Source of the DNA: a bacterium
GTDB taxonomy: Bacteria > Patescibacteriota > Minisyncoccia > Phycocordibacterales > UBA918
Assembly (NCBI GenBank): GCA_043719295.1
Contig: JAYSUD010000008.1
Coordinates: 8,216-72,215, forward strand
Direction: 5' to 3'
Length of the DNA: 64,000 nucleotides
Shown: in pieces, positions 6,206 through 43,591 of the stretch
Layout: every line of letters begins with the position of its first letter
Numbering within the stretch: the first letter of the stretch is position 1
Translations under genes and position numbers: made by a program
Notes under the pieces: generated by a model
The model's input: only the letters and a program-made list of their open reading frames with translations
Databases searched by the model: none
What the model was told of the DNA's origin: nothing

Positions 6206-6215
6206 ACAATACTCT

Positions 6216-6238: not shown

Positions 6239-6261
6239 AGATATCACTTTATACAGTTGAA

Positions 6262-11326: not shown

Positions 11327-11635
11327 CTATTGGCAGGTATCACAGACTTCAGGACTTTGGTGGATCCTCAGTCCTCCAAATGAATTGCTAACTTGGGGAA
11401 TGTTACAGTGTTCATTGAGGTACGCAATAATGTCTTGGGATTCATACATTTTTTCCCCACGTTCTGTATCTACTAGATACGGCACCTGCTTCTTTCCACC
11501 CAGTTTTACAAGCTCGTCTATAAGGGCTGGATCAGCAGAAATATCTTTAAGAGTAACTTTAATAGATAACGCCTCAATTTCACCAAGCACCGCTTGGCAA
11601 TAGGGGCAACTGGGACGGTAATAGAGTGTAAGCAT
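11327..11635 (-). CDS. Glutaredoxin-like protein (CPYC active site) with a Cys-containing C-terminal tail.
   Basis: MLTLYYRPSCPYCQAVLGEIE...KKQVPYLVD: glutaredoxin fold. Confidence 0.7.
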   Translation of the reverse strand: MLTLYYRPSCPYCQAVLGEIEALSIKVTLKDISADPALIDELVKLGGKKQVPYLVDTERGEKMYESQDIIAYLNEHCNIPQVSNSFGGLRIHQSPEVCDTCQ

Positions 11636-11788
11636 GATAGATTTACTTATATCTTGTATGTATACAGTATACAACGTTTATTCAAACCTGTCAGACAGTG
11701 CTAAACCATAAACACCATAAGGTTGAAAACCCCACAGTTTTCTGTACAATAGCCCTACTTGAAGTAATTCAAGTATAGATTCTAAAGC

Positions 11789-12116
11789 TCCGGTGTAGCT
11801 CAGCGGTAGAGCAATCGACTGTAACATTGAACAATGTTCAAAATAGCAGCCTTATCGAGAAATTGATATTGCAAACAAGGTGAATTGCTGGAACCCCCAC
11901 GACACAAGTCAGGGCAATCAGCAGCCAAGCTTTTGGAGAAATCCAATTGAAGGTCCAGAGACTATCCCTTCGGGGAGTAGAATGCTCACAAATGCATTCG
12001 AAGCGCCTTGCACCGTCAGTGTAGTAATACAACCGGTGATGATATAGTCCACGCCATACAGTAACGTATGAATAAGTGTAATCGATTGGTCGCAGGTTCG
12101 AATCCTGCCGCCGGAG
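11789..12116 (+). tRNA. tRNA-Asn (anticodon GUU) interrupted by a group I intron in the anticodon loop. No CCA is encoded.
   Basis: Exons tccggtgtagctcagcggtagagcaatcgactgt + taatcgattggtcgcaggttcgaatcctgccgccggag fold into a 72-nt cloverleaf. Acceptor TCCGGTG/CGCCGGA, U8, T-loop TTCGAAT, G73, and a 5-nt variable loop that excludes Tyr. Confidence 0.75.
11823..12078 (+). ncRNA. Group I self-splicing intron (~256 nt) within tRNA-Asn.
   Basis: CCAAGCTTTTGG (P5-like), GTCCAGAGACTA (J6/7-P7) and ATATAGTCC (P7'/J8-7) match the group I consensus. The intron ends in G. Boundaries are good to about 2 nt. Confidence 0.7.
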
Positions 12117-12132
12117 CTTTAGAATTTAGAGA

Positions 12133-12153
12133 CCACCCGCAAGGGTGGTTTTT
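12133..12153 (+). terminator. Rho-independent terminator downstream of tRNA-Asn.
   Basis: ccacccgcaagggtgg followed by ttttt. Confidence 0.7.
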
Positions 12154-12162
12154 AAAATTCTT

Positions 12163-12184
12163 AGCTCCGGCGGCAGGATTCGAA
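12163..12184 (+). repeat. Perfect inverted copy (22 nt) of the tRNA-Asn 3' end.
   Basis: agctccggcggcaggattcgaa is the exact reverse complement of the tRNA 3' end ttcgaatcctgccgccggagct. Together with the tRNA it makes a ~35-bp inverted repeat enclosing the terminator. Confidence 0.85.
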
Positions 12185-12238
12185 GACCTTGCCTGATATC
12201 TTTTTGAGGTACGAAATAAAATAGTGACAAGGTGTACT

Positions 12239-12268
12239 GGTCGTGTAACGACCGAAATTCCTGCCGCC
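12239..12268 (+). repeat. tRNA-flanking module: hairpin with TGTAA loop, then GAAATTCC, then a direct copy of the tRNA 3' strand.
   Basis: ggtcgtgtaacgacc-gaaattcc-tgccgcc. The tail is complementary to 12170-12182. Homologous modules at 58386-58413, 62436-62462 and 63420-63456. Confidence 0.6.
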
Positions 12269-12282
12269 TAAACATCCATATT

Positions 12283-12291
12283 CGTGGTATA
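12283..12291 (+). promoter_or_regulatory. Extended -10 promoter element (TGGTATACT) upstream of the HNH gene.
   Basis: tggtatact lies ~16 nt before the ATG at 12307. Pattern only. Confidence 0.4.
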
Positions 12292-12306
12292 CTAAACAAA
12301 ACATAC

Positions 12307-12636
12307 CACATGACCCGTAAAGAAACACGCACCTACGCCGATCGAGCTGAGTATATGAAACTCGCTGTCATTAAACGTCGCAAAAAAGTGCGTGACATGG
12401 CACTTGAATACAAAGGTGGAGTCTGCCAAATCTGTAGATATAGTAAAAGTAAACGGGCACTCTCCTTTCATCACATCAATCCCAAAACAAAAGAATTTGG
12501 TATTTCATACAGAGGCTTTACTCGATCATGGGACAAGACAAAAGCAGAACTCGATAAATGCATTCTGCTTTGCATGAACTGTCATATGGAGATACACGAT
12601 GGAATTACAAAGTTACCAGAACTTTGCATTACCTGA
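12307..12636 (+). CDS. HNH endonuclease (zinc-finger HNH); likely a homing-type endonuclease tied to the adjacent intron-containing tRNA.
   Basis: MTRKETRTYADRAEY...CQICRY...SFHHINPK...CMNCHMEIHDG: HNH motif with CxxC pairs. Start taken at the internal Met after the promoter-like box. Confidence 0.7.
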   Translation, partial: HMTRKETRTYADRAEYMKLAVIKRRKKVRDMALEYKGGVCQICRYSKSKRALSFHHINPKTKEFGISYRGFTRSWDKTKAELDKCILLCMNCHMEIHDGITKLPELCIT

Positions 12637-18315: not shown

Positions 18316-18804
18316 CTAAGGTAGTGACGGGAGTTCTTTCCAAGAAATAAGTTCACTCTCAAAAGAAGGTAATGGTGATAAAGGTGTATTAAGGGGAGGC
18401 GTTGCGATTTCATCAATTCGTATATCATGCATATCAAACTGCAGTTCAAGATTAGTAACAGAGTCACGAACCTTCCCTTGTACACGAAGTGTTACAAAAC
18501 CTGCTGTTGGAGTGTGCAGAGCTACTGGAAATACATAACACGTTCCCACGGCACTCGAGGTTGTGGCACCACCTTGGAATTCTGGATTTGCTATAAGCTC
18601 ACCAAGTGCCCTCTGTCCACACCCTTTCGCAAGTGTCTCTGACTGTTCTTTTGCTTCAACACCCAAGAGAGTGAATCGTGCTCGTGATCCAAACGTAGTA
18701 ATACTCACCGTCAGCACAAGCAAGACAGCGCCAATAACAATAGTTGCCATCAGTGCAATGTACCCATCAGAAACTTCCGGTGATTGTATATGTAAGTGTC
18801 GCAT
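18316..18804 (-). CDS. Pilus-associated protein (minor pilin or pseudopilin-like) with an N-terminal hydrophobic segment.
   Basis: 162 aa, SDGYIALMATIVIGAVLLVLTV... It overlaps both neighbours, so it lies in the same operon as the pilin and the giant protein. Confidence 0.4.
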   Translation of the reverse strand: MRHLHIQSPEVSDGYIALMATIVIGAVLLVLTVSITTFGSRARFTLLGVEAKEQSETLAKGCGQRALGELIANPEFQGGATTSSAVGTCYVFPVALHTPTAGFVTLRVQGKVRDSVTNLELQFDMHDIRIDEIATPPLNTPLSPLPSFESELISWKELPSLP

Positions 18805-21800
18805 TATAATTTCCAGCTTCAGTTAAGCTTTCTACATTTGCAATATAACGAAGGTCATACACAGAGACAGTCTCATCTCCTACTCCCGTTGCAACTAAAT
18901 CAGGAAACGACGCGCTGTCAAAGGCCCACAATAGTGAATTATAGGGTGACTGAGGAATACCATTACCTGAGGAGGTTGCAATTCGCATACCAAATTGCTC
19001 AGTACCGAGCAATGTTGCTGAAGGAGTGGCACCAATAGGAAGAAGCGTTGTATCAACGCACGCAGTACACGTGAGTGTATTTCCTGAAAGAGTGATGGTA
19101 TATCCGCCTGGCGCATTGGTAATTGCTGAAATAGTGTGAGCAACAGTTGTTGATGTTGTATTTCCAAGAGTATCTCCTGTTGCATATTTAGTAGTCACTG
19201 AAGATAATCCACCAAAACCAACAGTTGTATCTGAAATAGCCATAGTTATGTATTGTTCAGGTCTTTTTTTAAGATACCGCACACTCATCATTGCAAAATC
19301 CCACGCACGCGTGTCCCCTGCGGCTAATCGAGTTGAGGCTGAGCTACGAAGACGCAAGTTCATCAAATTATTAACCGTATCTACAAAATCATCAGGACCA
19401 TTTTGTTGTTCTACTATTCTAAAGGTATCGAAATACCCATACGTTGTTGCAGCGTTTACGTCAGTTCCGGGGGTACTTTGCCACCCTGCTCCTGTTGCCT
19501 CTCCACCTAAACCTGAAGTCCCTGCATAGTTTTTAAGCTGTACGTCACTTGTGATTGTGGTCACATTCGAACGAAACTTTGCTGCATAGTGGATACCCGT
19601 AATTGCTGTTGAAGATGGAACGGTAATAGGAAATGAAATGTTTGCCGAATGTGCGTACTCTGCATTTACCGCATCGTCGTCGTTATCAAGCGCATAGTAT
19701 GTGGAAGGATATTCAATGGCACTTGTTTGTTGCCAAGTTGCCGTTGATGAAGTTGCCGTAACTGCTTCACTCATTGTGCGCGTATTGGCACAATTAGCTG
19801 CTGTTCCCGTACCCCACGAAATTTCACATAAAGCACTGTTACTGTTTACTGATCCGAGCATTAAGTACATACGATCAAACTGAAGATTGTACACAACTCC
19901 TGGAGCATTAGTTAAAAAGCGAACGCGTACCTCCCCTGTTGAGGAAATGTGGTTAGCCATATTAAATCCACCTATAGAAGTATCGTTGAAGGTAAAGGCC
20001 ATATCTGCATCAGTTGCACAAGTAGCCCCGCCTATAGTCGTTGAGGCGTGTTGCGTCCAGGTTGTATTTTGAAAGTCATAGAGATATATGCCGAACGTCA
20101 AAGCAACGTTTGAGCGACAGATTTCAGCTGAGAATAAAATGGTATTCATGCCAGTGTATGTTTGCACATTTTTAAATGAGTAGTAGAAATCGGCTGCAGT
20201 TGAAATTGCAGTCATAGGGACCGTCATTTTGGTTGCATCACTTCCCGTGACGGTAGTATAGATACCTCCAAGTGTGTCAGAGATGAAGTTTGTCGTCACG
20301 CCGGCTGACGTTGTTGCAAAACCTGCGGGTTCGTAAATTGGATCGATAGCGACCTCTACTTGCGCGAAGTCAATACGGTGTTCAACGGTGTTGTTAACTG
20401 TTGAGTATGAACGGAGAATAATACGTCCACTTGTTGACGAAGCGAAGTTTGAAAGTGGTGTTGCAATGATTGTTCCAGGAGACGTCACACGCGTAGAGAA
20501 GTATCCGTCATATATTTCATAGACGCGTGTTATGTCAGTGGTATCAGTAAGGTTTGCGTCTTGTGGCTCGAGGTTGCGCCAACCACCTCCGGTACAACCT
20601 GCAGTTGCTGCGTTATCAACACCAGTATTGTCTACCCAATCACAAATTTGGTGTTGGTAGTTACTTCCAGTAGTAATATTGCCTGACTCTATTGTCAGCA
20701 AAAGCTTATTTGCACTATAGAGTTCAACATTGTCAAAATACAGCTGTGCGTCAAAACCAGTTGTTGTCCGTCTAAACGACCAATAGTTAGAATCGTTACC
20801 GAGTGTGCCTTTATAGTCTCCGGCGTTTACAAAAGAAGAAGACGAAGCGGTTCCAACTACAAGTGAACCACCTGTTGCAATATACTGACTCCGCAACGTT
20901 ACCCTACTTTGTTCATTGATAAAACGAACACTCATCATCGCAAAATCAATATCGCGAGTATCGCCTGACGCAACTCGAGTAGAGGCTGAGGTACGGATTC
21001 GCATGTTCATCACGTTGTTCTTAGTATCAACAAAATCATCAGAACCGTTTTGTTGTTCTACTATTCTAAATGAATCGAAATATCCATAGGTTGTAGATAA
21101 GTTAATATCGGCCCCTGGAGTACTTTGCCAGAATGACCCTGCTGCTTCGCCCGATACTCCTGAAGTCCCCGCGAAGTTCTTAATTTGAATGTCGTTGGTG
21201 ATAGTTGTCACGTTCGACCGGTGTTTTACTGCATAGTGAATACCCGTAATAGAGGTAGTTGAAGCAAGCGTAATTGGAAATGACAAGTTTGAAGAGTATG
21301 CATACTCAGCGTTGACCGCATCATCGTCATTATCAAGTGGATAGTATGTTGACGGATACTCAATGGCACTTGTTTGTTGCCACGTTGCGGTTGTCGGTGT
21401 GTCAGTAATTCCCTCTGCCATAGTGCGCGTATTTGAGCAATTGGCTGCCGTTCCCGTACCCCACGAAATTTCACACAAAGAACTATCAGTATTAACTGAT
21501 CCGAGCATCAAGTACAGTTGATCGAACTGCAAGTTATAGACGACTCCAGGGCCATTGGTTAAAAAACGCACACGTATTTCACCTGTAGAGGAAATATGGT
21601 CTTCCATATTAAAACCACTAACTGATGTATCGTTAAAGGTAAATACCATGTCTCTGTCAGTTGCACAGGTACTTGCACCAATAGTTGTTGATGCATGCTG
21701 CGTCCATGAAGTATTTTGAAAATCATACACATATATTCCAAACGTCAGCGCAGTGTTTGAGCGACAAATTTCTCCTGAGAACAAAATCGTATTCATCCCC

Positions 21801-22699
21801 GTATACGTTTTCACATTTTTAAATGAAAAGTAGAAGTCTGCTGGGGTTGAAACTGCAGTCATGGGCACAGTTAGTTTGTTAGCATCACTTGCCGTTAACA
21901 GGGTGTAGGTAGGAGGCCCAACCAAGTCAGAGATAAAGTTTGTCGTTACACCCGCTGACGTTGTTGCAAAGCCTGCGGGTTGATAGACCGGGTCAACAGC
22001 AACTTCTACCTGTGCGAAGTCAATACGATGCTCAACGGTGTTGTTAACTGTTGAGTACGAACGAAGAATAAATCGACTATTGTTTGAAGCATTGATAAAA
22101 TTTGACAACGGAGTACTTACGACAATTCCAGGCGACGTCACTCGTGTTGAAAAATAACCATCGTAAATTTCATAGACCCGAGTGTTGTCGGTTGTATCAA
22201 CAAAGTTTGTCCGTCTTGGTTGGAGTGTTCGCCATCCGCCTCCAGTACATTGTGCATCAACCGCGTTATCAACCCCTGTAGTTGAGACAAAGTCACAGAT
22301 TTGATGTACGTAGTTACTTCCTGTTGTGATGTTCGTTGATTCAATAGTGATAAGTATTTTATTGGCACTGTAGAGTTCTACATTGTCAAAATACAGTTGT
22401 GCATCAAAGCCAGTTGTAGTACGTCTAAACGACCAATAGTTAGAATCGTTACCAAGTGTTCCTTTATAATCGCCCGCGTTAACAAAAGATGAGGACGATG
22501 CGGTTCCGACAACAAGTAAACTTCCCGTTGCCCGATACTGTCCTGTTGCAAGTGCTGTTTCTGGAAGTAATGAATCGGCCGTTTGAGTACCTGACCCCAA
22601 ATCAAAAAAACTAAGTCCTCCAAAACCAACAAAAAGTGCCATAAGAAAAAAGAAAGTTCCTATAGACCACTGTACTTTTTTTTCAGAGGATATACTCAT
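18767..22699 (-). CDS. Giant (1310 aa) surface or pilus-associated adhesin-like protein made of two ~550-aa tandem repeat units.
   Basis: N-terminal signal-anchor. The blocks SLLVVGTASSSSFVNAGDYKGTLGNDSNYWSFRRTTTGFDAQLYFDNVELYSANK... and ...ILRSYSTVNNTVEHRIDFAQVEV... occur twice in the same order. Thr/Ser/Asn-rich beta-type composition. Confidence 0.7.
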   Translation of the reverse strand: MSISSEKKVQWSIGTFFFLMALFVGFGGLSFFDLGSGTQTADSLLPETALATGQYRATGSLLVVGTASSSSFVNAGDYKGTLGNDSNYWSFRRTTTGFDAQLYFDNVELYSANKILITIESTNITTGSNYVHQICDFVSTTGVDNAVDAQCTGGGWRTLQPRRTNFVDTTDNTRVYEIYDGYFSTRVTSPGIVVSTPLSNFINASNNSRFILRSYSTVNNTVEHRIDFAQVEVAVDPVYQPAGFATTSAGVTTNFISDLVGPPTYTLLTASDANKLTVPMTAVSTPADFYFSFKNVKTYTGMNTILFSGEICRSNTALTFGIYVYDFQNTSWTQHASTTIGASTCATDRDMVFTFNDTSVSGFNMEDHISSTGEIRVRFLTNGPGVVYNLQFDQLYLMLGSVNTDSSLCEISWGTGTAANCSNTRTMAEGITDTPTTATWQQTSAIEYPSTYYPLDNDDDAVNAEYAYSSNLSFPITLASTTSITGIHYAVKHRSNVTTITNDIQIKNFAGTSGVSGEAAGSFWQSTPGADINLSTTYGYFDSFRIVEQQNGSDDFVDTKNNVMNMRIRTSASTRVASGDTRDIDFAMMSVRFINEQSRVTLRSQYIATGGSLVVGTASSSSFVNAGDYKGTLGNDSNYWSFRRTTTGFDAQLYFDNVELYSANKLLLTIESGNITTGSNYQHQICDWVDNTGVDNAATAGCTGGGWRNLEPQDANLTDTTDITRVYEIYDGYFSTRVTSPGTIIATPLSNFASSTSGRIILRSYSTVNNTVEHRIDFAQVEVAIDPIYEPAGFATTSAGVTTNFISDTLGGIYTTVTGSDATKMTVPMTAISTAADFYYSFKNVQTYTGMNTILFSAEICRSNVALTFGIYLYDFQNTTWTQHASTTIGGATCATDADMAFTFNDTSIGGFNMANHISSTGEVRVRFLTNAPGVVYNLQFDRMYLMLGSVNSNSALCEISWGTGTAANCANTRTMSEAVTATSSTATWQQTSAIEYPSTYYALDNDDDAVNAEYAHSANISFPITVPSSTAITGIHYAAKFRSNVTTITSDVQLKNYAGTSGLGGEATGAGWQSTPGTDVNAATTYGYFDTFRIVEQQNGPDDFVDTVNNLMNLRLRSSASTRLAAGDTRAWDFAMMSVRYLKKRPEQYITMAISDTTVGFGGLSSVTTKYATGDTLGNTTSTTVAHTISAITNAPGGYTITLSGNTLTCTACVDTTLLPIGATPSATLLGTEQFGMRIATSSGNGIPQSPYNSLLWAFDSASFPDLVATGVGDETVSVYDLRYIANVESLTEAGNYNATLTYTITGSF
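19050..22540 (-). repeat. ~1.65-kb tandem duplication (2 units, ~70-75% nucleotide identity) inside the giant CDS.
   Basis: cactcatcatcgcaaaatc at ~20935 matches cactcatcattgcaaaatc at ~19274. gtaccccacgaaatttcaca(c/t)aaag occurs at ~21463 and ~19812. Period ~1.65 kb. Confidence 0.75.
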
Positions 22700-24290: not shown

Positions 24291-25040
24291 CTATTCTAAG
24301 CCTAAAACCCTTTTCCGCTCTACAAGTGCTTTTACAATCTCTGCATCTGTCTCTTCATAGGCACCCTCACCAATATGGTCGTACACAATATTTCCATGTA
24401 TATCAATCAAATATTTTCTAGGCCAAAATCGGTTGCCATATGCATTCCATGTCGCATATTCATTATCCATAATAACGGGATACGTAATGCCGAACTTAAG
24501 CATTGCTTCTTCGACATTATCCTTATCTTTTTCAAACGCAAACTCAGGAGTATGAAGCCCAATAACAATCAATCCATCATCTTTATATGCTTCATACCAT
24601 GTATTCACATACGGAAATGTCGCCTGACAGTTACTACACGAATAGGTCATCACGTTAAGTACGATTACTTTTTTACCCACATATTCACCAATTGTAATAG
24701 GTTGATTATTACTGTTCACAAATCCTGATGGACGGACAATCTCAATATACTTTTTAAAATTGTTTGTACCTGTTTTTGGTAGTGCATTTTCTGTGACAAC
24801 AGAATCGGTTTGAGGAAGACCAGTACGTTCATTTGAATCTTTTTGAATACACACGGAACTTGTAGATGAGGTACTGCAACTTACGGAAGACTCTTCTTTC
24901 AAGTCCTTGGTATTTGGACTCATATCAGATAGAGAGACAATGTCTTGTTCGTTGTTTTTGATAGTAAATGCACCTGTAGCAACAAGACCTATAGAGGCGA
25001 GCCCAATTAGAAAGAGTGTAATACCAAGAACATACCGCAT
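24291..25040 (-). CDS. TlpA/ResA-like thiol-disulfide oxidoreductase (redoxin fold, membrane-anchored).
   Basis: N-terminal TM, CxxC site in VLNVMTYSCSNCQATFPYVNTWYEAYKDDGLIVIGLHTPEFAF: AhpC/TSA-redoxin pattern. Confidence 0.7.
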   Translation of the reverse strand: MRYVLGITLFLIGLASIGLVATGAFTIKNNEQDIVSLSDMSPNTKDLKEESSVSCSTSSTSSVCIQKDSNERTGLPQTDSVVTENALPKTGTNNFKKYIEIVRPSGFVNSNNQPITIGEYVGKKVIVLNVMTYSCSNCQATFPYVNTWYEAYKDDGLIVIGLHTPEFAFEKDKDNVEEAMLKFGITYPVIMDNEYATWNAYGNRFWPRKYLIDIHGNIVYDHIGEGAYEETDAEIVKALVERKRVLGLE

Positions 25041-25041
25041 A

Positions 25042-25764
25042 CTAAATTTTTTCTAATAGCTTGTGTTCAATTTTAGTAACGTCAAAGTAACCACGTTCAA
25101 TTAAGTTCGTTTCAAACTTTTTTTCAAGTCCTAACATAATTGAAAGACCAAGAAGAATAAAGAGCACCCCAAGTGAACGCTTAAACCAACCTCGTCCATC
25201 TGAGACGTTTGTCAGTTTTGCGGTAAATTTTTCACCTAACAATGCAATGAGTAAAAGGACTAACGATAAGCCCAATGTGTAAGCGAGCAAATACGTTGTA
25301 CCGAGCAAGAAACTTGCAGGCAGTACAGACGCTAAGATGACAAAGTACGTTGGTGAACAAGTAGAGAAAATTGGACCTAACGATGCTCCAACAATTACGT
25401 CACCCCAAACAGTTTTTTTAAGATGCCCTTTGCCAAGTAATTTATTTGAGCCAATAGAAAGTTTTGAAATGTACGGTATACGCTCCCACAAAGAAGGAAA
25501 CGAAAGTACCAGCCCAAACACGAAGATGATGCCTCCTGAAAGATACGTCCAGAATTCTTGTGGCACCGTAATAAACACTGTGGAGACTTTTAGGATAAAC
25601 GTAAACGCAATAATTGAAAGCGCTAACGATCCGACAACAATGTATGGTGTGTATGGACTTCTCCCTTGTGAAGACGTACCAATAACAACAGGTAATAACG
25701 GCAAAATACACGGTGCCAAGACCGTGAGAATGCCTGCTAAAAACGATACTATGAGTAACGTCAT
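25042..25764 (-). CDS. ccdA: Cytochrome c-type biogenesis protein CcdA (DsbD-family membrane thiol-disulfide transporter).
   Basis: LAGILTVLAPCILPLLPVVIG and a second conserved Cys (IFSTCSPTYF); six TM helices. Confidence 0.8.
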   Translation of the reverse strand: MTLLIVSFLAGILTVLAPCILPLLPVVIGTSSQGRSPYTPYIVVGSLALSIIAFTFILKVSTVFITVPQEFWTYLSGGIIFVFGLVLSFPSLWERIPYISKLSIGSNKLLGKGHLKKTVWGDVIVGASLGPIFSTCSPTYFVILASVLPASFLLGTTYLLAYTLGLSLVLLLIALLGEKFTAKLTNVSDGRGWFKRSLGVLFILLGLSIMLGLEKKFETNLIERGYFDVTKIEHKLLEKI

Positions 25765-25771
25765 ACTACTA

Positions 25772-26401
25772 TTATTTTACACTTGTCATCAAAGAAGCCA
25801 ATGTTGGTGAACCACTCCATTTAGCAATCTGTGTCCCGTTACTATCAACTTGCACAAACGTGTGTTGGTAGGTTACGCCATACTTTGTTTTAAGTGCCTG
25901 TGAGTTGTCGTAGTCAACTTCTAAAATAGTGAGACCGTCTTTGATTGAAGTTCTATTTGCCTTGATGTCTGCGTCAACTGCTTTACATGAAGGACACCAT
26001 GACGCTTTAAAAAATAGCACAACGTCACCTTTCTCTGCACGCGCAAGCTTACTTGCATCATAGGTCTCATAACTTCCCTTCTCCATCATTGTAGCTTCTG
26101 CTGGCTTAGCCATTGCATCTGTCTTCATCATAGAGTCATCTTTTTTCATCATTGCATCATCTTTCATCATAGAGTCTGCGTCTTTTGACATTGAGGTGTC
26201 ATCTTTTTTCATTGCCTCTGCTTCCATAATTGACTTTTCCTCCATAGCTTTTTTCTCCATCATCGCTTTTTCTTCCATCTCTAGCTTTTCTTGCATCACC
26301 TTTTGTTCTTGTGCCTTTGTATCAGTAGCGTTGTTTTGTAGTAAAAAATACCCAACTCCCCCGAGTACCACAACTCCCCCAATAAGTAACAAATTTTTCA
26401 T
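25772..26401 (-). CDS. Membrane-anchored thioredoxin-fold protein (WCPSCK) with a Met-rich repeat region.
   Basis: TM anchor, then MMEKKAMEEKSIMEAEAMKKDDTSMSKDADSMMKDDAMMKKDDSMMKTDAM, then a thioredoxin fold with the WCPSCKA active site. Confidence 0.7.
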   Translation of the reverse strand: MKNLLLIGGVVVLGGVGYFLLQNNATDTKAQEQKVMQEKLEMEEKAMMEKKAMEEKSIMEAEAMKKDDTSMSKDADSMMKDDAMMKKDDSMMKTDAMAKPAEATMMEKGSYETYDASKLARAEKGDVVLFFKASWCPSCKAVDADIKANRTSIKDGLTILEVDYDNSQALKTKYGVTYQHTFVQVDSNGTQIAKWSGSPTLASLMTSVK

Positions 26402-26607
26402 GTGTTTTGTATATATAATTGACAATACAAAAAGCATATACCATCGTATACAAAATGTAAAGTTAACTTTACATTTTATCTGTGGAAAAACTTAGGGGTG
26501 ATAAAATCAGAGGATTTATGAAAACGAGTGAGAAGTGATACAAAATCCACCACAAGAGTATTTCCATTTTTATAGTCGTCTTACGACTCCATAAAAATTA
26601 GGTCACT

Positions 26608-26656
26608 TCGCAAGAGGTTTCCTACTCTTTTGGAAAAAGAGTGAGAACCTGTACAG
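26608..26656 (+). repeat. Nested-hairpin module (same family as 3601-3655 and 28254-28302).
   Basis: tcgcaagAGGTTtcctaCTCTTTTggaAAAAGAGtgagAACCTgtacag. Confidence 0.6.
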
Positions 26657-26708
26657 TTCCTGTAAGGAACAAGAGAGATTAAGAAGTGTGCCGTTTCCAT
26701 AAAACCTG

Positions 26709-27068
26709 CTAATTGTAGGTGTCGGCAAACAACCTCGCACACAACTTTGAAATAACCATCACACCTAAGGTTACTGCAATCCATGGGTCAATTGCGTGAG
26801 AAAGTCCTTGAATAATAAGAGCGAGGGTCAATGTACCAATACCAGACAAGTACGCTACCCTTCCCGCATTCATACGATGCTGTAGTTCGCGTTCATCTCC
26901 ACTTTTTTCATACATGACAAAACCAGCCCAAATCAACAGTAATGAACACGCACCAAGCAATGCGAGCATTTGCGCCATGTCAGGCATCCAAAATGGAATC
27001 AGATCTGCAAGTGCAAGAAGTAATACTACTAAAACTAAAGCTACGACAATTTCAATTGTGTTATTTTT
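26709..27068 (-). CDS. Small membrane protein (DUF2178-like) paired with an XRE regulator.
   Basis: Three or four TM helices. Overlaps the upstream HTH gene by 8 nt, the typical HTH_XRE + membrane-protein pair. Confidence 0.45.
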   Translation of the reverse strand, partial: KNNTIEIVVALVLVVLLLALADLIPFWMPDMAQMLALLGACSLLLIWAGFVMYEKSGDERELQHRMNAGRVAYLSGIGTLTLALIIQGLSHAIDPWIAVTLGVMVISKLCARLFADTYN

Positions 27069-27273
27069 CATAAGCAATTTTAAAAACTTCTTCAACAGTA
27101 ACACCAAAAACCCGCGCAATCTTTATTGCGAGCAATACTGACGGCGTGTAATTCCCTTTCTCGATAGCAATTACCGTCTGCCGGCTAACGCCAATTTTTT
27201 GTGCAAACTCTTCTTGAGTAAAGCTTTTTTTACTACGGAGTGCGTGCACGTTATTTTTAATATATTCTGTCAT
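27061..27273 (-). CDS. XRE-family HTH transcriptional regulator.
   Basis: KSFTQEEFAQKIGVSRQTVIAIEKGNYTPSVLLAIKIARVFGV: Cro/C1-type HTH. Confidence 0.85.
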   Translation of the reverse strand: MTEYIKNNVHALRSKKSFTQEEFAQKIGVSRQTVIAIEKGNYTPSVLLAIKIARVFGVTVEEVFKIAYEK

Positions 27274-27324
27274 ATAAGACTTCCTCAGTATACTATGTGT
27301 TCAAACAAAGATGTCAAGTCAACT

Positions 27325-27696
27325 TCACACTGCTTGTTTTTTCTTCTTTGGCTTCGGTTTTGGTAATGAAGCAGAGAGTAACTGTAGAATTTCTGACAAA
27401 TTTTTAATCGAACGTATCTGTTCCTCTTCAACAACGTAATGTAATTTTGCACCAGTATAGGGAGAATCTTTTTCGCACATACTTTCAAGTTCAGAACTTG
27501 AAGGTACAATTTTTACATACAACAAATCATCACAGATAAGCGCCACAACTTTCCCGTCACAATACAAAGCATACTCCCCAAACATCGCTCTTGCTGTAAA
27601 AATGTGTGGTTTACGAGACCCCACATCGAAGACACCACCTTGTTGCCCTTCAAGAGTTTCAAGAATATGCGCAACAGTTTCTTTGTGGGTACTCAT
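27325..27696 (-). CDS. TfoX N-terminal domain protein.
   Basis: HILETLEG...ARAMFGEYALYCDGKVVALICDDLLYVKI matches the TfoX_N consensus. Confidence 0.65.
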   Translation of the reverse strand: MSTHKETVAHILETLEGQQGGVFDVGSRKPHIFTARAMFGEYALYCDGKVVALICDDLLYVKIVPSSSELESMCEKDSPYTGAKLHYVVEEEQIRSIKNLSEILQLLSASLPKPKPKKKKQAV

Positions 27697-27705
27697 TATA
27701 AGTAT

Positions 27706-28191
27706 CTATAAATAACTATCAAAATAGATTGCATGGCAAGTATAGCCACCCACATTCTTCTGCAAATAGTCCTGATGGTAACTTTCAGCAGGCCAAAAAC
27801 GTGTATACGGTTCAAGTGATGTAACAACAGGATTGTCCCAACGTTCACTCTCATTCACTACCTCAATCATCTCCTCTCCAATTTCTTTTTCTTTCTCATC
27901 TTTGTAGAAAATTGCAGAACGATACGAAGTGCCTTTGTCATTTCCCTGTTGATTTAAGGTTGTCGGGTTATGAACCTGGAAAAAGAAATCAAGAATTTGT
28001 TTGTATGAAATTACATTCTCATCATAGGTAACAAGAAGTGCTTCGGCGTGACCTTCATGTGATTCATACGTTGGATTTTCACCTTTGCCACCACTGTATC
28101 CAGCTTCAGTATCAAGAACACCTTTAAGATCACGAAAGAGTTCTTCCAATCCCCAGAAACACCCGCCAGCTATGATTGCTTCTTTTTGCAT
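27706..28191 (-). CDS. msrA: Peptide methionine sulfoxide reductase MsrA.
   Basis: MQKEAIIAGGCFWGLEELF... GCFWG active site. 161 aa. Confidence 0.9.
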   Translation of the reverse strand: MQKEAIIAGGCFWGLEELFRDLKGVLDTEAGYSGGKGENPTYESHEGHAEALLVTYDENVISYKQILDFFFQVHNPTTLNQQGNDKGTSYRSAIFYKDEKEKEIGEEMIEVVNESERWDNPVVTSLEPYTRFWPAESYHQDYLQKNVGGYTCHAIYFDSYL

Positions 28192-28250
28192 AGTTATTAT
28201 TATATTAAGAATTAACTTCTATTCTTTACTATCACCAGATAGCGACTCAG
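28151..28250 (-). repeat. Promoter/5'-CDS unit of msrA (copy 1, functional). Duplicated at 28487-28590 and, diverged, at 28321-28405.
   Basis: ~100 nt (ccccagaaacacccgccagctatgattgcttctttttgcatagttattattatattaagaattaacttctattctttactatca) recur nearly identically 336 nt upstream. Confidence 0.85.
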
Positions 28251-28320
28251 AATCTGTTCAGGTTGTCGCTCTTTTTCCAAAAGAGCAGGCAACCTCTTGC
28301 GAAGTGACATTTAGTCACTT

Positions 28321-28405
28321 CTCACCCCAGAAACATCCCCCTGCAAGTAAGGCTTCTTTTTGCATATAGTCTGATATATAAATTATGTACTTCTATTCTT
28401 ACAGA
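28321..28405 (-). pseudogene. Diverged decoy copy of the msrA start (would encode MQKEALLAGGCFWGEK*).
   Basis: On the minus strand reads ATGCAAAAAGAAGCCTTACTTGCAGGGGGATGTTTCTGGGGTGAGAAGTGA, then a hairpin and the nested-hairpin module. Confidence 0.6.
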
Positions 28406-28486
28406 ATCTGTCCACTCATTGGATTTTTTATTTCACTTCGTTCATAAAAACTCACAATGAGTCTTGCGACAGTCCCCCGGACTGTC

Positions 28487-28590
28487 TCACCCCAGAAACA
28501 CCCGCCAGCTATGATTGCTTCTTTTTGCATAGTTATTATTATATTAAGAATTAACTTCTATTCTTTACTATCAGTAGATAATGACTCAGG
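28487..28590 (-). pseudogene. Near-identical decoy copy of the msrA promoter plus first 14 codons, followed immediately by a hairpin and a U-run terminator.
   Basis: Minus-strand RNA: ...ATGCAAAAAGAAGCAATCATAGCTGGCGGGTGTTTCTGGGGTGAGACAGTCCGGGGGACTGTCGCAAGACTCATTGTGAGTTTTTAT. Confidence 0.7.
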
Positions 28591-28633: not shown

Positions 28634-29248
28634 TTATTTAATTTCTACTTGTACTTCATTACGATTCATCCAAGGTGGTGTCCATGGTGCATTGTATCCT
28701 GCGTACGAAGGTGTACCCACAATCACAACGCCATCTTTTGAAAGTGCATCTTGCAATAGTCTTTGTTTTTCAATTACACGTGATTCAGAACGAAACCAAG
28801 AAAAACGAAGTACCGCTATTTTTTGTGCTGGCACTTCTTTTAGGCTCACTCGTGCATCATTTGGAACAGGGAGTGTTGCCAATGTATATGAAGCTGGCAT
28901 CACAAATGAAATAACACGAGACGATCCTTCTAAACTCGCAACAACAGGGGCTGTCATTGCAATTTTTTCAGATGTCTTTTGAGTAACAGGAGCCGTCATT
29001 GCAATTTTTTCTTGAGCAGTATTGTCTCCAAAAATATATCCTGCAATAATACTAAATCCTTTGTTTAACGATTCGTCGTACGAACCTTCAACAGTGGTCT
29101 CTGCCACAATTCGAGCTTTATATTCCCGCACTTCATACATGCCTTCTTTTTTAAGAACCCCGTACTGTGCCTGTTCAACATTTGACCCAAAGTAACCCCA
29201 CACAGACCAAAGTACTAAAACAAGTACAACAATAATTAAAAATTTCAT
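28634..29248 (-). CDS. SOUL/HBP heme-binding family protein with an N-terminal membrane anchor.
   Basis: YEVREYKARIVAETTVEGSYDESLNKGFSIIAGYIFGDNTAQEKIAMTAPV... is SOUL-domain-like. A second IAMTAPV repeat is present. Confidence 0.5.
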   Translation of the reverse strand: MKFLIIVVLVLVLWSVWGYFGSNVEQAQYGVLKKEGMYEVREYKARIVAETTVEGSYDESLNKGFSIIAGYIFGDNTAQEKIAMTAPVTQKTSEKIAMTAPVVASLEGSSRVISFVMPASYTLATLPVPNDARVSLKEVPAQKIAVLRFSWFRSESRVIEKQRLLQDALSKDGVVIVGTPSYAGYNAPWTPPWMNRNEVQVEIK

Positions 29249-30332: not shown

Positions 30333-30531
30333 AATATGTTCGCAGAAAAATGACTCATAATTGAGTCATTTTTCTACACATTTTAATCACTTGTACAAAA
30401 TCCTATATAACCTAGACAAATGAGTGCAATTCGAGACGCACAAACAAAAAAGGACGAGTCGTACGCATAGTACGGTGAGGAGTATTTTCGTGCAGTGCAA
30501 CGAAGAAGTGTGCCATTTGTGTAGGTTATGT

Positions 30532-31134
30532 TTACTTCCCTTCAACCAAATACCTATACACCTGGAATCCAAGTATTGCGCCGATAATCGGCGCAAACAA
30601 ATACACAAAAGTAAGTGAATTGAGCGCAAATGCTACTGCGGGGTTTAATATTCCCGAAGCGCCTAAAAATGAAGCAATTAAAATTCCGAACAGAAGTGAT
30701 CCTCCTACCACCATTCCTGACATTTGTTCTTTGGCTTTCCCGTATACAACCGATGCAATCCCAAAGTTAAAGAAAAATGCTCCAAGCATCTCAGCTAAAA
30801 AAACCGTCACTTCAAACGGTGCAACTATAGCCGGAGTGACCGTGAAAAAAACTTTTGCAACAACTATTGCGCCAACTGCTCCAATGATTTGTGCAACAAT
30901 GTACCGAATTCCCTCAATACGTGAAATTTTTCGAACTGACATAAGTCCAAGTGTCACTGACGGATTAATGTGACAACCTGATACTGCTCCAATTGTGTAA
31001 ACAAAAAGACCAAGGGTAAAACCTGCGATAAGTGGTACCGCCATTGGAAGTGTTCCTGTAAATGAAACTGCTCCTAACACAACGGTTGCAAGTGCAAATG
31101 TTCCAACTGCTTCAGCAATATATTTTTGATACAT
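30532..31134 (-). CDS. Aquaporin / MIP-family channel.
   Basis: Two half-helix motifs HINPSVTLG and ILNPAVAFA (NPS/NPA), six TM helices. 200 aa. Confidence 0.8.
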   Translation of the reverse strand: MYQKYIAEAVGTFALATVVLGAVSFTGTLPMAVPLIAGFTLGLFVYTIGAVSGCHINPSVTLGLMSVRKISRIEGIRYIVAQIIGAVGAIVVAKVFFTVTPAIVAPFEVTVFLAEMLGAFFFNFGIASVVYGKAKEQMSGMVVGGSLLFGILIASFLGASGILNPAVAFALNSLTFVYLFAPIIGAILGFQVYRYLVEGK

Positions 31135-32339: not shown

Positions 32340-32744
32340 TTACCAATTCAAATACGTAATAGTCAGTTGCAATATAGTCGCAAAGGAAACCCAGAGTGTA
32401 TAGGGAATGTTTATGTAAGAAACCCATTTTATGTATGGATAAATTGCGATAAGCCCCCACACCAACGTTACCAAGACCAATAGAATATCAATTGATGCAA
32501 GCAAGTTATTTTGTAAGCCAAACTGAAGTGGAGTAAAAAGCGCATTGAAAATCAAGTTTAATGCAAATGGAACCGCAACCTTTTGTGGTATCTCTTTTTT
32601 ATATACTTTGTAAAAAACGGCAAAAAAAGAAACGGCGATGATTGCGTACAACACTGCCCACACAGGACCAAATAACCATGCTGGAGGTGCCCATTCTGGC
32701 TTAACCAATTCTGTGTACCAGTTATATGTTGTATTCATAATCAT
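32340..32744 (-). CDS. tspO: TspO/MBR family tryptophan-rich sensory protein.
   Basis: LVKPEWAPPAWLFGPVWAVLYAIIA..., five TM, many Trp. Confidence 0.8.
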   Translation of the reverse strand: MIMNTTYNWYTELVKPEWAPPAWLFGPVWAVLYAIIAVSFFAVFYKVYKKEIPQKVAVPFALNLIFNALFTPLQFGLQNNLLASIDILLVLVTLVWGLIAIYPYIKWVSYINIPYTLWVSFATILQLTITYLNW

Positions 32745-40620: not shown

Positions 40621-40656
40621 AGAAATTCATTGTAACACCTTTAGCTCAACCGTTTG

Positions 40657-40709
40657 CTGCCAGACTTGGACTCGAACCAAGATAACATCCTCCAGAGGGA
40701 TGTGTCCTA
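40657..40709 (-). pseudogene. Partial copy of tRNA-Gln (anticodon arm through 3' end, lacking acceptor 5' and D arm) ~55 nt downstream of the intact gene.
   Basis: Minus strand: ...gtaggacacatccctctggaggatgttatcttggttcgagtccaagtctggcag matches the intact tRNA from the D-loop end to the 3' end. Confidence 0.65.
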
Positions 40710-40767
40710 CAGTCAAATGAGTGAGCGAAACGAGGAAATGGATATTTCTTATTATTTACGTGCTTTG

Positions 40768-40838
40768 CTGCCAGACTTGGACTCGAACCAAGATGATATC
40801 CTCCAGAGGGATACATCCTACCATTAGATGATCTGGCA
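40768..40838 (-). tRNA. tRNA-Gln (anticodon CUG); no encoded CCA.
   Basis: Minus strand tgccagatcatctaatggtaggatgtatccctctggaggatatcatcttggttcgagtccaagtctggcag. Acceptor TGCCAGA/TCTGGCA, anticodon loop CUCUGGA, T-loop TTCGAGT. Confidence 0.7.
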
Positions 40839-40926: not shown

Positions 40927-41114
40927 ATGTGTGTGTCTGTTTGTTTGTTTCTTATTTGTCTTTAACCTACCAATACAGCTTCATGTGAAGCGCTACTTTT
41001 CATGAAGCCTGTTTGGTACATTTCTTGCGTTTTTGACGTAAGCAACACTATAGTGCCAAAATTCCTCGATAAATCAAGCTTTGTATGTCCTTAAGTCCTC
41101 AACTCTTCATACAC

Positions 41115-41744
41115 TCATTCCGCAAAGTGCGCGTGGTCGTTCCACATTTCTAGATGCCATGAGCTCTTATCGAAGGTAAAAGTGCTGATACTTGTATTAC
41201 TCATAGAAGAAATTGCATTTTTAAAATCAATATTTTCTGAAGGTGTTTGTGCTCCATGATGCAGTATGAAAATTAGAATTGATTTAATCAACGATTCATG
41301 ACTTACTACTAAAATGTGTTCTTCAGGATGACTTGCTAATTTGGCAAGCCCTAACTCTATTCTCTTATGTAGATCAGTGTAATTTTCTGCATCCTCATAC
41401 CTGGCACCTGTAACTTCATAGCACTGCTTTAGGTTTTCAAAGTATTCTTTTGCTTCAGGTCCGTTTTTTGGCTTGCCATGCATTGATGAAGCAAATTTAA
41501 TGCCACTAAAACAGTCTTCTATCTCAATCGGCAAACCAGTTACATTACTAATATATTCTGCAGTCTGGATTGTTCGTTTTAGTGATCCTGCTAGGAGTGT
41601 GGTTATGGGTAGCGATTGAATACGTTCTGCAATAAACTTTGATTGCTGATGTCCAAGTTCAGTCAATACAGCTGTCGGAAGTTTGAAAATCTTTTCTAAG
41701 TTTCCTTCAGCTTGACCATGCCGGATAAAGTAAATTGTTTTCAT
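41115..41744 (-). CDS. Histidine phosphatase family protein (phosphoglycerate mutase-like), paralog 1.
   Basis: MKTIYFIRHGQAEGN... (RHG catalytic motif) ...SHESLIKS. Ends WNDHAHFAE, the same as its neighbour. Confidence 0.75.
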   Translation of the reverse strand: MKTIYFIRHGQAEGNLEKIFKLPTAVLTELGHQQSKFIAERIQSLPITTLLAGSLKRTIQTAEYISNVTGLPIEIEDCFSGIKFASSMHGKPKNGPEAKEYFENLKQCYEVTGARYEDAENYTDLHKRIELGLAKLASHPEEHILVVSHESLIKSILIFILHHGAQTPSENIDFKNAISSMSNTSISTFTFDKSSWHLEMWNDHAHFAE

Positions 41745-41748
41745 ACAC

Positions 41749-42384
41749 TCATTCCGCAAAGTGCGCGTGGTCGTTCCAGAGGACCAATCGCCATCCCCTA
41801 TCTTCACTGTACTCAAATAAGGTAATGCCTGTGTTACTAATTTTAAAAGTAGAAGCAAGGTTGTGCCATACGTGAGTAGTTGATTCTGCTTTAAGTAGTA
41901 CAGCTGACGCAAAACACATCATAAAGAAACTATGGGAAACAACTAAAATTGTTTCTGCGTCATCTGTTTCAAGAAGTGATTTTGCTTGTTGTACACGAGC
42001 AAAAATGTCTTCGAAGTTCTCTCCGTCTTCTTGTCGCCACGTTGGGTTTTCTACATTTGCATTTCTGTTTTTACGGTGCGACAGAACTCGCTCATCTTCT
42101 TCAGATATATTGAACAATGAAGATGGTTCAATTACCTCTCCAAAGACTGGAGCGGTATTTGGAACAATGTTTTTCAATAGAGCAATTGGCTCTGTTGTCT
42201 GCTCAGCTCGGAGAAAATCACTTACGTATATTTTCTTAATTTCTAAATCTTTCACACGCGATGCAACAAGTTCTGCTTGTGCGAATCCATTAAGATTTAG
42301 CGGTTCAGCTTTACTCGGCACGTACCGCTCTACATTCGAATCAGTCTCTCCATGTCGTACAAAATATATTCGTTTGGTTGTCAT
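41749..42384 (-). CDS. Histidine phosphatase family protein, paralog 2 (tandem).
   Basis: MTTKRIYFVRHGETDSN... ...VSHSFFM. The last ~32 nt (cactcattccgcaaagtgcgcgtggtcgttcca) are identical to paralog 1. Confidence 0.75.
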   Translation of the reverse strand: MTTKRIYFVRHGETDSNVERYVPSKAEPLNLNGFAQAELVASRVKDLEIKKIYVSDFLRAEQTTEPIALLKNIVPNTAPVFGEVIEPSSLFNISEEDERVLSHRKNRNANVENPTWRQEDGENFEDIFARVQQAKSLLETDDAETILVVSHSFFMMCFASAVLLKAESTTHVWHNLASTFKISNTGITLFEYSEDRGWRLVLWNDHAHFAE

Positions 42385-43430: not shown

Positions 43431-43591
43431 ATTTTTTTAAATTTTCATTAGTATAGAACTTTCACAAATGGATGCAATTCGAGACGTACAAATAAAATAT
43501 GACGAAACGTACTTGATGTACGTTGAGGATTATTTTTTGCAGTACAACGAAGAAGTGCGCCGTTTGTGTAGGTTCTATATAGTATAACAGA

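Follow-up and report, generated by a model that had tools for sequence, protein, structure and literature searches.

We describe here a five-gene cassette encoded on the minus strand of a 64,000-nucleotide (nt) stretch of the genome of a Parcubacterium, a member of the Patescibacteria (contig JAYSUD010000008.1; the window, hereafter, is this whole stretch), consisting of an XRE-family helix-turn-helix (HTH) regulator, a small membrane protein with four transmembrane (TM) helices, a methionine-rich membrane-tethered thioredoxin (Trx), the thiol-disulfide electron channel CcdA and a DipZ-type redoxin. Taken as a whole, the observations are best explained, with reasonable confidence, by a Parcubacterial extracytoplasmic reducing pathway that would send its electrons mainly to methionine-sulfoxide reductases (Msr) at the cell surface, the methionine-rich stalk of the thioredoxin acting as an oxidant sink. 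The parts of this reading differ in strength: it is highly likely that the cassette is a CcdA-dependent reducing system, and probable that methionine-sulfoxide repair is its main purpose, while a sink function of the stalk, proposed by analogy, is plausible at somewhat less than even confidence.

The cassette and its immediate surroundings contain the following features, with membrane topology called from hydropathy.

24291..25040, minus strand: membrane-tethered DipZ-type redoxin, 249 amino acids (aa) (Pfam Redoxin PF08534, E = 2.2e-14; AhpC-TSA match; DipZ structure match)
25042..25764, minus strand: CcdA, six-TM thiol-disulfide electron channel, 240 aa (DsbD_2 above gathering score, hydrophobicity, synteny)
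25772..26401, minus strand: Met-rich tethered thioredoxin, 209 aa (Pfam Thioredoxin PF00085, E = 1.7e-11; open frame to 26437)
25775..26086, minus strand: minimal thioredoxin-fold domain of this protein, with WCPSC (AlphaFold2, Foldseek, alignments)
26087..26302, minus strand: Met/Lys/Glu/Asp-rich stalk of the same protein, ~72 residues (composition, AlphaFold2)
26339..26395, minus strand: signal-anchor (single TM) at its N-terminus (Kyte-Doolittle)
26453..26476, no strand: putative operator, 24-nt palindrome (sequence, promoter scan, pattern match)
26709..27071, minus strand: 4-TM membrane protein, 120 aa (four hydrophobic segments; no family match found)
27061..27273, minus strand: XRE-family HTH regulator, 70 aa (Pfam HTH_3, E = 1e-15; synteny)
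27311..27330, no strand: degenerate second operator copy (match with 3 mismatches)
27325..27696, minus strand: TfoX_N-domain protein, 123 aa (Pfam TfoX_N, E = 1.9e-9)
27706..28191, minus strand: cytoplasmic MsrA, 161 aa (Pfam PMSR, E = 5e-59; TIGR00401, 174.8 bits against a cut-off of 108)

Every open reading frame (ORF) named in a preliminary description of this DNA is present in the ORF list of the window, all on the minus strand, and both the gene calls and the domains assigned to them were borne out by Pfam and NCBIfam matches. The module described there had three genes; the cassette has five, the HTH and 4-TM genes between the thioredoxin and TfoX genes having gone unmentioned. The thioredoxin, ccdA and redoxin genes are separated by gaps of 7 nt and 1 nt and form one operon. 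A topology prediction, which the preliminary description had called for, gave a single N-terminal anchor on each of the two Trx-fold proteins, six TM helices in CcdA and none in MsrA.

A pattern scan with one genome per GTDB species showed that a relative of the Met-rich thioredoxin is encoded in 554 Patescibacteria species genomes, and the best 80 loci of these 554 genomes were analysed (labels such as L001 and L007 denote these loci of cassette relatives). Named homologues belong to Candidatus Kaiserbacteria, Paceibacteria and Parcubacteria. CcdA is encoded directly 3' of the thioredoxin gene in 74 of 75 evaluable loci, and the HTH and 4-TM genes stand immediately upstream of it in 64 of 74. 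The operon slot after the thioredoxin gene holds either CcdA with the redoxin, fused or split (65 loci), or CcdA with MsrA and MsrB (9 loci, 8 fused and 1 split), and the redoxin may carry a Thioredoxin_10 C-terminal domain (CTD):

CcdA, redoxin and CTD, fused: 36 loci
CcdA, then redoxin with CTD: 14 loci
CcdA fused to redoxin, CTD absent: 11 loci
CcdA, then redoxin, CTD absent (the window type): 4 loci
CcdA, MsrA and MsrB, fused: 8 loci
CcdA, then MsrAB: 1 locus

Other neighbours do not travel with the cassette. A TfoX homologue was found within 10 kb of it in only 1 of 80 loci, and the genes for two large surface proteins of 519 aa and 1310 aa are not conserved neighbours in relatives; both adjacencies are therefore incidental, and TfoX, which was noted earlier beside the module, does not belong to the cassette. 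The position of the module also has to be restated: being on the minus strand, it lies transcriptionally upstream of the large surface-protein genes, not downstream of a pilus/adhesin operon.

The connection to methionine-sulfoxide repair emerges from these relatives. Of 74 loci, 32 encode an Msr domain within 10 kb; by a rough estimate, a gene with one or two copies in a genome of ~1 Mb would be expected there in a few percent of cases. In eight loci (L023:10592-12442, L031, L041, L055, L066:10620-12428, L070, L071 and L081:10383-12254), a six-TM CcdA fused to MsrA and MsrB is encoded directly after the Met-rich thioredoxin gene, and both Msr domains follow the sixth TM helix, which places them outside the membrane. 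The DipZ redoxin is absent within 10 kb in all nine CcdA–MsrAB loci, where the Met-rich thioredoxin family is the sole Trx-fold partner encoded; one of them, L066, has a second copy of this family. TM-anchored MsrA–MsrB proteins were found in a further arrangement in eight loci, in seven of them directly after the CcdA/redoxin gene and in L017 ~2 kb upstream of the thioredoxin gene, and a TM-anchored MsrB stands beside the cassette in six loci. An extracytoplasmic MsrAB, as CcdA fusion or with its own TM anchor, is thus encoded in 16 of 74 related loci, and small leaderless msrA or msrB genes adjoin the cassette in ~20 of 74. At the level of the family, these gene arrangements make the link to methionine-sulfoxide repair well supported. 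In one anchored MsrA–MsrB (L007:2004-3590), a DM13 ('electron transfer') domain (PF10517, 5e-13) is added at the N-terminus.

The link proposed in the preliminary description therefore stands for the family, through the CcdA–MsrAB fusions, the anchored MsrAB proteins and the 32 loci with an Msr domain, and falls for the msrA gene of the window itself. That MsrA has its catalytic Cys11 in GCFWG and a recycling Cys152; it begins at GCFWG, has neither hydrophobic segment nor signal and is preceded by an in-frame stop 4 codons upstream, from which it follows that the protein is cytoplasmic. Its gene is separated by 9 nt from tfoX, with which it is probably co-transcribed, and the two form a separate unit in which the cassette operator is absent. 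Lacking a signal or anchor and lying in a unit without the operator, this msrA cannot encode the surface acceptor; its product is a functional neighbour in the repair of oxidised methionine and not part of the export relay. We infer an Msr acceptor for this genome as well.

The 5' end of msrA is present in three tandem copies (28146-28226, 28320-28400 and 28485-28565), each with a −10 region, a ribosome site and the first ~14 codons including GCFWG. The two upstream copies give rise to the mini-ORFs MQKEALLAGGCFWGEK, closed by a stop codon, and MQKEAIIAGGCFWGETVRG... (43 aa), in each of which 'GGGGTGAG' gives way to a 7-bp hairpin with CGCAAGA behind it. A past duplication could have left them behind, or they could be regulatory ORFs that resemble leader peptides.

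CcdA matched DsbD_2 (PF13386) at 28.7 bits, above the gathering score of 24.9, and PF02683 weakly at 18 bits. Its six hydrophobic segments contain only two cysteines, each adjoining a proline as in CcdA/DsbD channels: Cys19 (APCILP) lies in segment 3-21, the first TM helix, and Cys136 (TCSP) opens segment 136-154, the fourth. By homology, and by the C-terminal redoxin or MsrAB fusions of its relatives, CcdA would pass electrons from cytoplasmic thioredoxin to extracytoplasmic partners, a direction of flow that we infer from the CcdA/DsbD systems.

In the redoxin, a TM helix at residues 4-22 is joined by a Ser/Thr-rich linker, which contains Cys55 and Cys64, to a Trx-like domain whose active site is YSCSNCQ (CSNC; family motif YSC[IS]NC). 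Its best solved relative is DipZ of Mycobacterium tuberculosis (Rv2874; 2hyx/5cyy), with E = 2e-38 over 135 residues (105-239), followed by human NHLRC2 (E = 2.3e-19) and Arabidopsis SOQ1 (E = 6.5e-18). With the curated models, ResA (NF002854) gave 59.7 bits against a cut-off of 170 and dsbE 22.6 bits against 123, and both the ResA and the StoA models scored far under their cut-offs. Judged by these matches, the protein is a DipZ-type redoxin and not a ResA; it had earlier been called TlpA/ResA-like. With DipZ it has in common the xSCxNC active site and a WP cis-proline loop. In DipZ, however, CcdA, redoxin and the Thioredoxin_10 CTD are fused into one polypeptide, as they are in 36 of 74 related loci, whereas the window has separate genes for CcdA and a self-anchored redoxin; the CTD, present in most relatives, is absent, and a remnant of it was not found in the whole window. 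We know of no established physiological acceptor of DipZ.

For the lumenal Trx-like domain of Arabidopsis SOQ1, it has been reported that electrons are fed to a C-terminal domain with Msr activity (preprint 10.1101/2024.11.01.621559). We considered whether the DipZ CTD is an Msr of this type that is replaced by MsrAB in some loci, and ruled this out: 49 of 52 Parcubacterial CTDs have no cysteine, so the two-Cys mechanism proposed for SOQ1 cannot operate there. The window redoxin, unlike SOQ1, has no such domain at all. An anti-correlation between the two does exist: of 16 loci that lack the CTD, 6 have an anchored MsrAB, as against 2 of the 50 that have it (Fisher p = 0.0018, ignoring phylogeny).

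CcdA together with a redoxin of the TlpA/ResA superfamily is also the classic pairing of cytochrome c maturation, and the cassette could accordingly be read as the reductive branch of System II, reducing the CxxCH motifs of apocytochromes. ResA is the best partial match of the redoxin among the NCBIfam models, and Parcubacteria, generally inferred to be non-respiring, include rare exceptions with c-type cytochromes (PMC5220378). The ResA score nonetheless remains far below its cut-off beside the match to DipZ, and the genomic context speaks against this reading throughout. Among the ORFs of 81 loci, none contains the WWD heme-handling motif (WGxxWxWD, searched as a regular expression), and CxxCH occurs in 11 of 2518 ORFs of at least 100 aa. 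Within the window, CxxCH is confined to an HNH-like ORF and a likely spurious one, which leaves no credible CxxCH protein, and Pfam scans of 50 window ORFs returned no respiratory, cytochrome or heme-lyase families. In the 64-kb window and 1.25 Mb of related loci, neither ResBC/CcsBA or Ccm proteins nor c-type cytochromes were found, and the cassette occurs in 554 species of a lineage generally without electron-transport chains (PMC5220378). A role in cytochrome c maturation is thus very improbable. The earlier remark that nothing else here suggests cytochromes is upheld, as is the reading of the module as a CcdA-dependent export of reducing power, and labels such as 'cytochrome c biogenesis protein CcdA/DipZ' are misleading in genomes that bear the cassette.

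The component that sets the cassette apart is its thioredoxin, for which 2141 homologues were found. The most likely start codon is ATG 26401, which gives 209 aa and agrees with the gene call in L001/P0001, and not ATG 26437, because the predicted −10 box at 26433-26438 puts the transcription start downstream of the latter. The anchor reaches a Kyte-Doolittle peak of 2.11 (residues 15-33 of the 221-aa ORF) and has no lipobox cysteine; an N-terminal hydrophobic segment is present in 115 of the 120 top homologues. The methionine-rich tract noticed in the preliminary description is real: the segment MMKDDAMMKKDDSMMKTDAM contains 10 Met among 40 residues, far above chance given the 2.2% Met of the long ORFs of the window, and no other ORF of the window exceeds 6 Met per 40 residues. 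The same holds in the 1.25 Mb of related loci, where 73 ORFs reach 8 or more Met per 40 residues and 67 of them are Met-rich thioredoxins.

Across 116 homologues, the stalk consists of 21.6% Met, 16.8% Lys, 16.6% Glu, 12.4% Ala and 8.7% Asp, with 0.14% His and essentially no Cys, and this composition is maintained while the length varies from ~40 to 100 residues. Distances between methionines peak at 1, 5-7 and 11-12, corresponding to MM pairs every ~6 residues (typical words are AMMEKK and MMKKD), and such a hexad-like repeat in stalks of varied length points to selection on composition, not on sequence. A molecule carries ~15 stalk methionines, and their number shows no correlation with operon type, the medians being 13-16 in every class. 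AlphaFold2 predicted a helix at residues 37-75 (pLDDT ~70) in the E/K-rich first half of the stalk and gave pLDDT values below 50 for residues 78-118, the D/K-rich second half being predicted to be disordered. Some multi-domain relatives have Met-rich linkers between their domains.

The domain at the tip of this stalk is confidently predicted (pLDDT >90, AlphaFold2) and is structurally similar to classical thioredoxins (Foldseek TM-score ~0.74), with a minimal classical fold and without the insertions of the Sco/TlpA type. Its active site, WCPSC (Cys148/Cys151), is a CxxC at the N-terminus of helix 1, as in classical thioredoxins, and the family motif WCP[ST]C resembles the active site of CcmG. 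The cis-proline of classical thioredoxins is missing: His192, in the motif Q-H-T-F, aligns with the cis-proline of 'MPTF' in thioredoxin 5dbq, and the position is an invariant His column in the family alignment (His in 123 of 125 and in 139 of 179 domains, Pro in none). Across the fold class, the cis-proline is better conserved than CxxC itself and is thought to shape the substrate groove and to block metal binding at CxxC (PMC2757866, for the latter citing Su et al. 2007). The invariant His may tune reactivity or bind a metal.

This His beside the CxxC, together with a Met-rich region outside the membrane, is what favours a role in handling copper or another soft metal, in which the stalk would capture Cu(I) and hand it to a Cys148/Cys151/His192 site by the logic of Sco proteins, the cysteines would be held in the reduced state by CcdA, in the way that TlpA serves Sco, and a nearby Msr would repair the Met copper sites. 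A few neighbours, moreover, encode Met/His/Gly-rich tracts of the copper-protein type (L020 2705-4264, L038 12424-12849). The stalk itself argues otherwise. Cu(I) 'Mets' motifs of the Ctr1, CusF, CopC/PcoC and CueO type have clustered MxM, MxxM or MxxxM spacings with His, an arrangement that the stalk does not have: Met–Met distances of 2, 3 and 4 occur at 0.18, 0.03 and 0.14 times the frequency expected from shuffled sequences, a 5- to 30-fold depletion, and His is nearly absent. Only 1 of 80 loci encodes a P1B-type ATPase within 10 kb, compared with 32 of 74 that encode Msr domains; small MxCxxC ORFs occur in 5 loci, none of them in a conserved position; the fold is that of a minimal thioredoxin and not of Sco or TlpA; and most Parcubacteria have no copper enzymes that Sco-type chaperones would serve (PMC5220378; established knowledge). 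On spacing, scarcity of His and the absence of copper-gene synteny, we rejected the copper-like reading of the tract, which the preliminary description had entertained, as lead explanation, and we regard metal handling as quite unlikely. As to the Met-rich neighbours, L020 encodes two such proteins (2705-4264 and 4265-6514), one of which adjoins a P1B-type ATPase, and the one in L038 (12424-12849) is encoded shortly downstream of an anchored MsrB gene (11482-11970).

A second alternative concerns the acceptors. The cassette might be a general disulfide reductase or isomerase for secreted and surface proteins, such as pilin-like proteins and the 1310-aa protein encoded just beyond the operon, with the stalk as a stiff, charged single-helix spacer of the ER/K kind that lifts the thioredoxin domain off the membrane. 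Indeed, no terminator is predicted between the operon and the genes for the 519-aa and 1310-aa surface proteins that follow it, and the gaps there measure 35-53 nt. The 14 Cys of the 1310-aa protein form a repeated pattern, one long E/K-rich helix is predicted for the first half of the stalk, and in other bacteria several acceptors are supplied by DipZ-type and CcdA systems (PMC3914529 introduction; PMC3322552). The surface-protein genes are, however, not conserved neighbours of the cassette, CcdA–MsrAB fusions fill the same operon slot in other loci, and a pure spacer leaves unexplained why stalks of such variety all keep ~22% Met, a bias nearly unique to this thioredoxin. We consider this alternative unlikely. 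The 1310-aa protein (18767-22699) contains an internal tandem duplication (offset ~1650 nt, 70-83% identity) and has no Pfam match; the preceding 519-aa protein is acidic and without Cys.

Several observations count against Msr as the principal acceptor and against the stalk as a sink. An Msr domain is missing within 10 kb in 42 of 74 related loci, a number that also fits the disulfide alternative; Msr is therefore not an obligatory member of the operon, and other acceptors must exist. In the 64-kb window, neither an outward-facing Msr nor any MsrB was found, the only Msr there being cytoplasmic. All locus counts come from related genomes and do not represent independent events. When the thioredoxin domain alone was used as query, about half of the nearest 50%-identity clusters had ordinary linkers without Met excess, and the stalk is therefore dispensable for the basic job of the domain. 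The loss of the cis-proline and the invariant His beside CxxC could favour metal binding or other chemistry over plain disulfide exchange with Msr. Finally, the sink idea draws on the composition of the stalk and on analogy. With these points weighed, repair of methionine sulfoxide at the surface remains the purpose that we favour for the cassette.

The regulatory region is as distinctive as the proteins. The intergenic region before the thioredoxin gene contains a perfect 24-nt palindrome, AAATGTAAAGTTAACTTTACATTT (26453-26476), and the promoter of thioredoxin, ccdA and redoxin has its −35 box, TTTACA (26455-26460), in the right half of this palindrome; a −10 box, TATGCT, follows 17 nt on at 26433-26438. 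Of 80 loci, 42 have the exact core ATGTAAAG-N4-CTTTACAT in a single copy, a short way before the thioredoxin gene. A relaxed pattern gave 68 matches in the 1.25 Mb, and all 68 fall at promoters of the cassette. The thioredoxin gene is preceded by 54 of these sites, the HTH gene by 13, and the remaining one precedes the anchored MsrAB gene of L017. In the window, a degenerate copy with 3 mismatches, ATGTCAAGTCAACTTCACAC (27311-27330), overlaps the TTGACA −35 box of the HTH promoter, a promoter-like site at 27317..27290 that agrees at 10 of 12 positions, and an operator upstream of the HTH gene is also present in 13 other loci. This second copy over the HTH promoter suggests autoregulation.

The recognition helix of the XRE protein is strongly conserved (RQT.IA.EKGNYTPS), and the pattern of sites is consistent with an autoregulated repressor that would bind the palindrome and act with a small membrane partner. 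That partner, the 4-TM protein, has the conserved motifs P..WMP, DER and Q..H..D.W and 193 homologues, all unnamed or from the Candidate Phyla Radiation (CPR), one of which has a precomputed DUF2178 match; no significant Pfam or NCBIfam match was found for its family, even at E values up to 10. It is a candidate for a component that senses a signal or modulates the HTH regulator. An Rfam scan found no known RNA element in or beside the cassette.

Two repeats also touch this region. A 61-nt inverted repeat with 89% complementarity (26602-26662 and 28248-28308) flanks the msrA–tfoX–HTH–4TM segment; the arm upstream of msrA supplies the −35-like part of the promoter region there, and the other arm is promoter-like and directed antisense into the 4-TM gene, which suggests a past inversion or recombination, or an antisense transcript. 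An element of ~37 nt (TGACAAcCTGnACnG...TGTAA) recurs at 3628-3664, 12212-12248, 26629-26665, 58359-58395, 62333-62369 and 63395-63431 and looks like the promoter consensus of the genome, with a −35-like box followed by an extended TGTAAGAAT −10-like box.

In the mechanism that we propose, the XRE repressor and its 4-TM partner would control the operon through the palindromic operator over the −35 box. Electrons would run from NADPH through TrxB and TrxA to CcdA (Cys19/Cys136), from there to the two tethered CxxC proteins and on to acceptors at the surface, where they would mainly recharge MsrA and MsrB outside the membrane, the enzymes that relatives fuse to CcdA or anchor beside it. The methionines of the stalk, oxidised by peroxide or hypochlorite-type oxidants, would form a renewable sink, re-reduced by surface Msr with electrons that arrive by way of the thioredoxin domain, which the stalk itself carries at its tip.

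A bolder form of this proposal, which we regard as speculative and rather doubtful, is that the Met-rich thioredoxin with His in place of cis-Pro represents a new functional class of the Trx fold, specific to Parcubacteria and related groups. Such a protein would be an extracellular antioxidant, tethered to the membrane and recharging itself: its ~10-25 exposed methionines, arranged as a rod and a tail, would take up oxidants and be repaired in cycles through its own CxxC, and its Cys2–His site might carry out sulfoxide or sulfenate reduction or metal chemistry in place of simple disulfide exchange. If this were true, the thioredoxin, with the XRE/4-TM switch and its operator, would be the main oxidative-stress defence at the surface of organisms that live on other cells and have no more than a few of the classical defences.

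The concept of a surface CcdA–Trx–Msr pathway is already known from Streptococcus and Fusobacterium (PMC3914529, PMC9239216). S. pneumoniae has the CcdA1–Etrx1–MsrAB2 and CcdA2–Etrx2 systems, and an MsrAB pathway is described in S. gordonii (PMC3914529, PMC7034828). As in S. pneumoniae, CcdA is encoded in one operon with surface-exposed Trx-fold proteins that form two parallel donors, and a surface MsrA–MsrB acceptor is anchored beside CcdA or fused to it in relatives of the window. The Etrx proteins, on the other hand, are TlpA-like lipoproteins with cis-Pro, whereas the window has a His-variant Met-stalk thioredoxin and a DipZ-type redoxin as donors, signal-anchors instead of lipid as tethers, no surface Msr encoded in the window, and an XRE regulator with a 4-TM protein and a palindromic operator. 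The trx–ccdA–msrAB–modRS locus of F. nucleatum is peroxide-induced and genetically linked to its regulator (PMC9239216). Here, too, Trx, CcdA and MsrAB are clustered with a dedicated linked regulator, which is a two-component system in F. nucleatum and a putative one-component XRE repressor with a small membrane partner in our case; the F. nucleatum locus has neither the Met-rich stalk nor a DipZ-type redoxin.

The feeding of membrane-tethered Trx-fold reductases by a CcdA/DsbD-type channel is shared with CcdA–ResA and CcdA–StoA of B. subtilis and with DsbD–CcmG of E. coli, the cytochrome c or sporulation context of which is absent in the window. For the stalk, the closest parallel is the MrpX/YedY(MsrP) system of Azospira suillum. 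There, a dedicated stress regulator controls a Met-rich extracytoplasmic polypeptide that has been proposed to undergo sacrificial oxidation and to be restored by a methionine-sulfoxide reductase (PMC4436054). With MrpX the stalk shares its extracytoplasmic location, its ~22% Met and, at family level, its linkage to Msr, a likeness by analogy without homology. MrpX is a free soluble peptide recycled by a molybdoenzyme that is fed from the quinone pool; the Met-rich segment of the window, in contrast, is covalently part of a thiol electron donor, and the reductases linked to it are the thiol-dependent MsrA and MsrB.

New, then, are the methionine-studded His-variant thioredoxin, its pairing with a DipZ-type redoxin, the alternation of DipZ and CcdA–MsrAB in one operon slot, and the XRE/4-TM regulator with its operator. 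In the literature that we searched, no description was found of the Met-rich thioredoxin family, of Msr/CcdA systems in Patescibacteria or of these elements. For protein chemistry, the family offers a thioredoxin in which a near-universal cis-proline is replaced by an invariant His, and a conserved hexad-like MM repeat. The CPR/Patescibacteria represent a huge and almost uncultured part of bacterial diversity, with many members in oxic water and soil, and little is understood of how these minimal cells, mostly fermentative and attached to surfaces, shield their envelope from oxidants; with its occurrence in at least 554 species-level genomes and its clear regulatory signature, the cassette is a testable candidate for a system that repairs oxidative damage at the surface.

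The rest of the window encodes housekeeping proteins (Def, Fmt, TopA, DprA, SerRS, RelA/SpoT, ParB and DnaX), a pilin-like protein and large surface proteins. Beyond msrA lie genes for an anchored protein of the SOUL heme-binding family (28634-29248), an MIP aquaporin (30532-31134) and a TspO/MBR protein (32340-32744). SOUL and TspO/MBR are tetrapyrrole-binding families, the aquaporin is a possible peroxide channel, and a SOUL homologue is also encoded near the cassette in L009; these genes may belong to a wider oxidative-stress neighbourhood.

A group I intron (Rfam RF00028, 80 bits; 11828-12071) interrupts a tRNA gene (11789-12119) that was not called by ARAGORN; behind the 3' end of this tRNA stand a terminator hairpin and a second, inverted copy of that end (12097-12184), and the next ORF (12232-12636) has a CMNCH motif suggestive of an HNH endonuclease. 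An intergenic element of ~130 nt, present in two copies (30404-30534 and 43452-43581) that are 78-84% identical and have no Rfam match, could be a lineage-specific small RNA or regulatory element. An uncalled copy resembling tRNA-Gln stands beside the tRNA-Gln gene (40653-40720 versus 40764-40831, 87% identity over 68 nt), and two His_Phos_1 phosphatase genes that adjoin and overlap have an exact 39-nt repeat in common (41106-41144 and 41740-41778).

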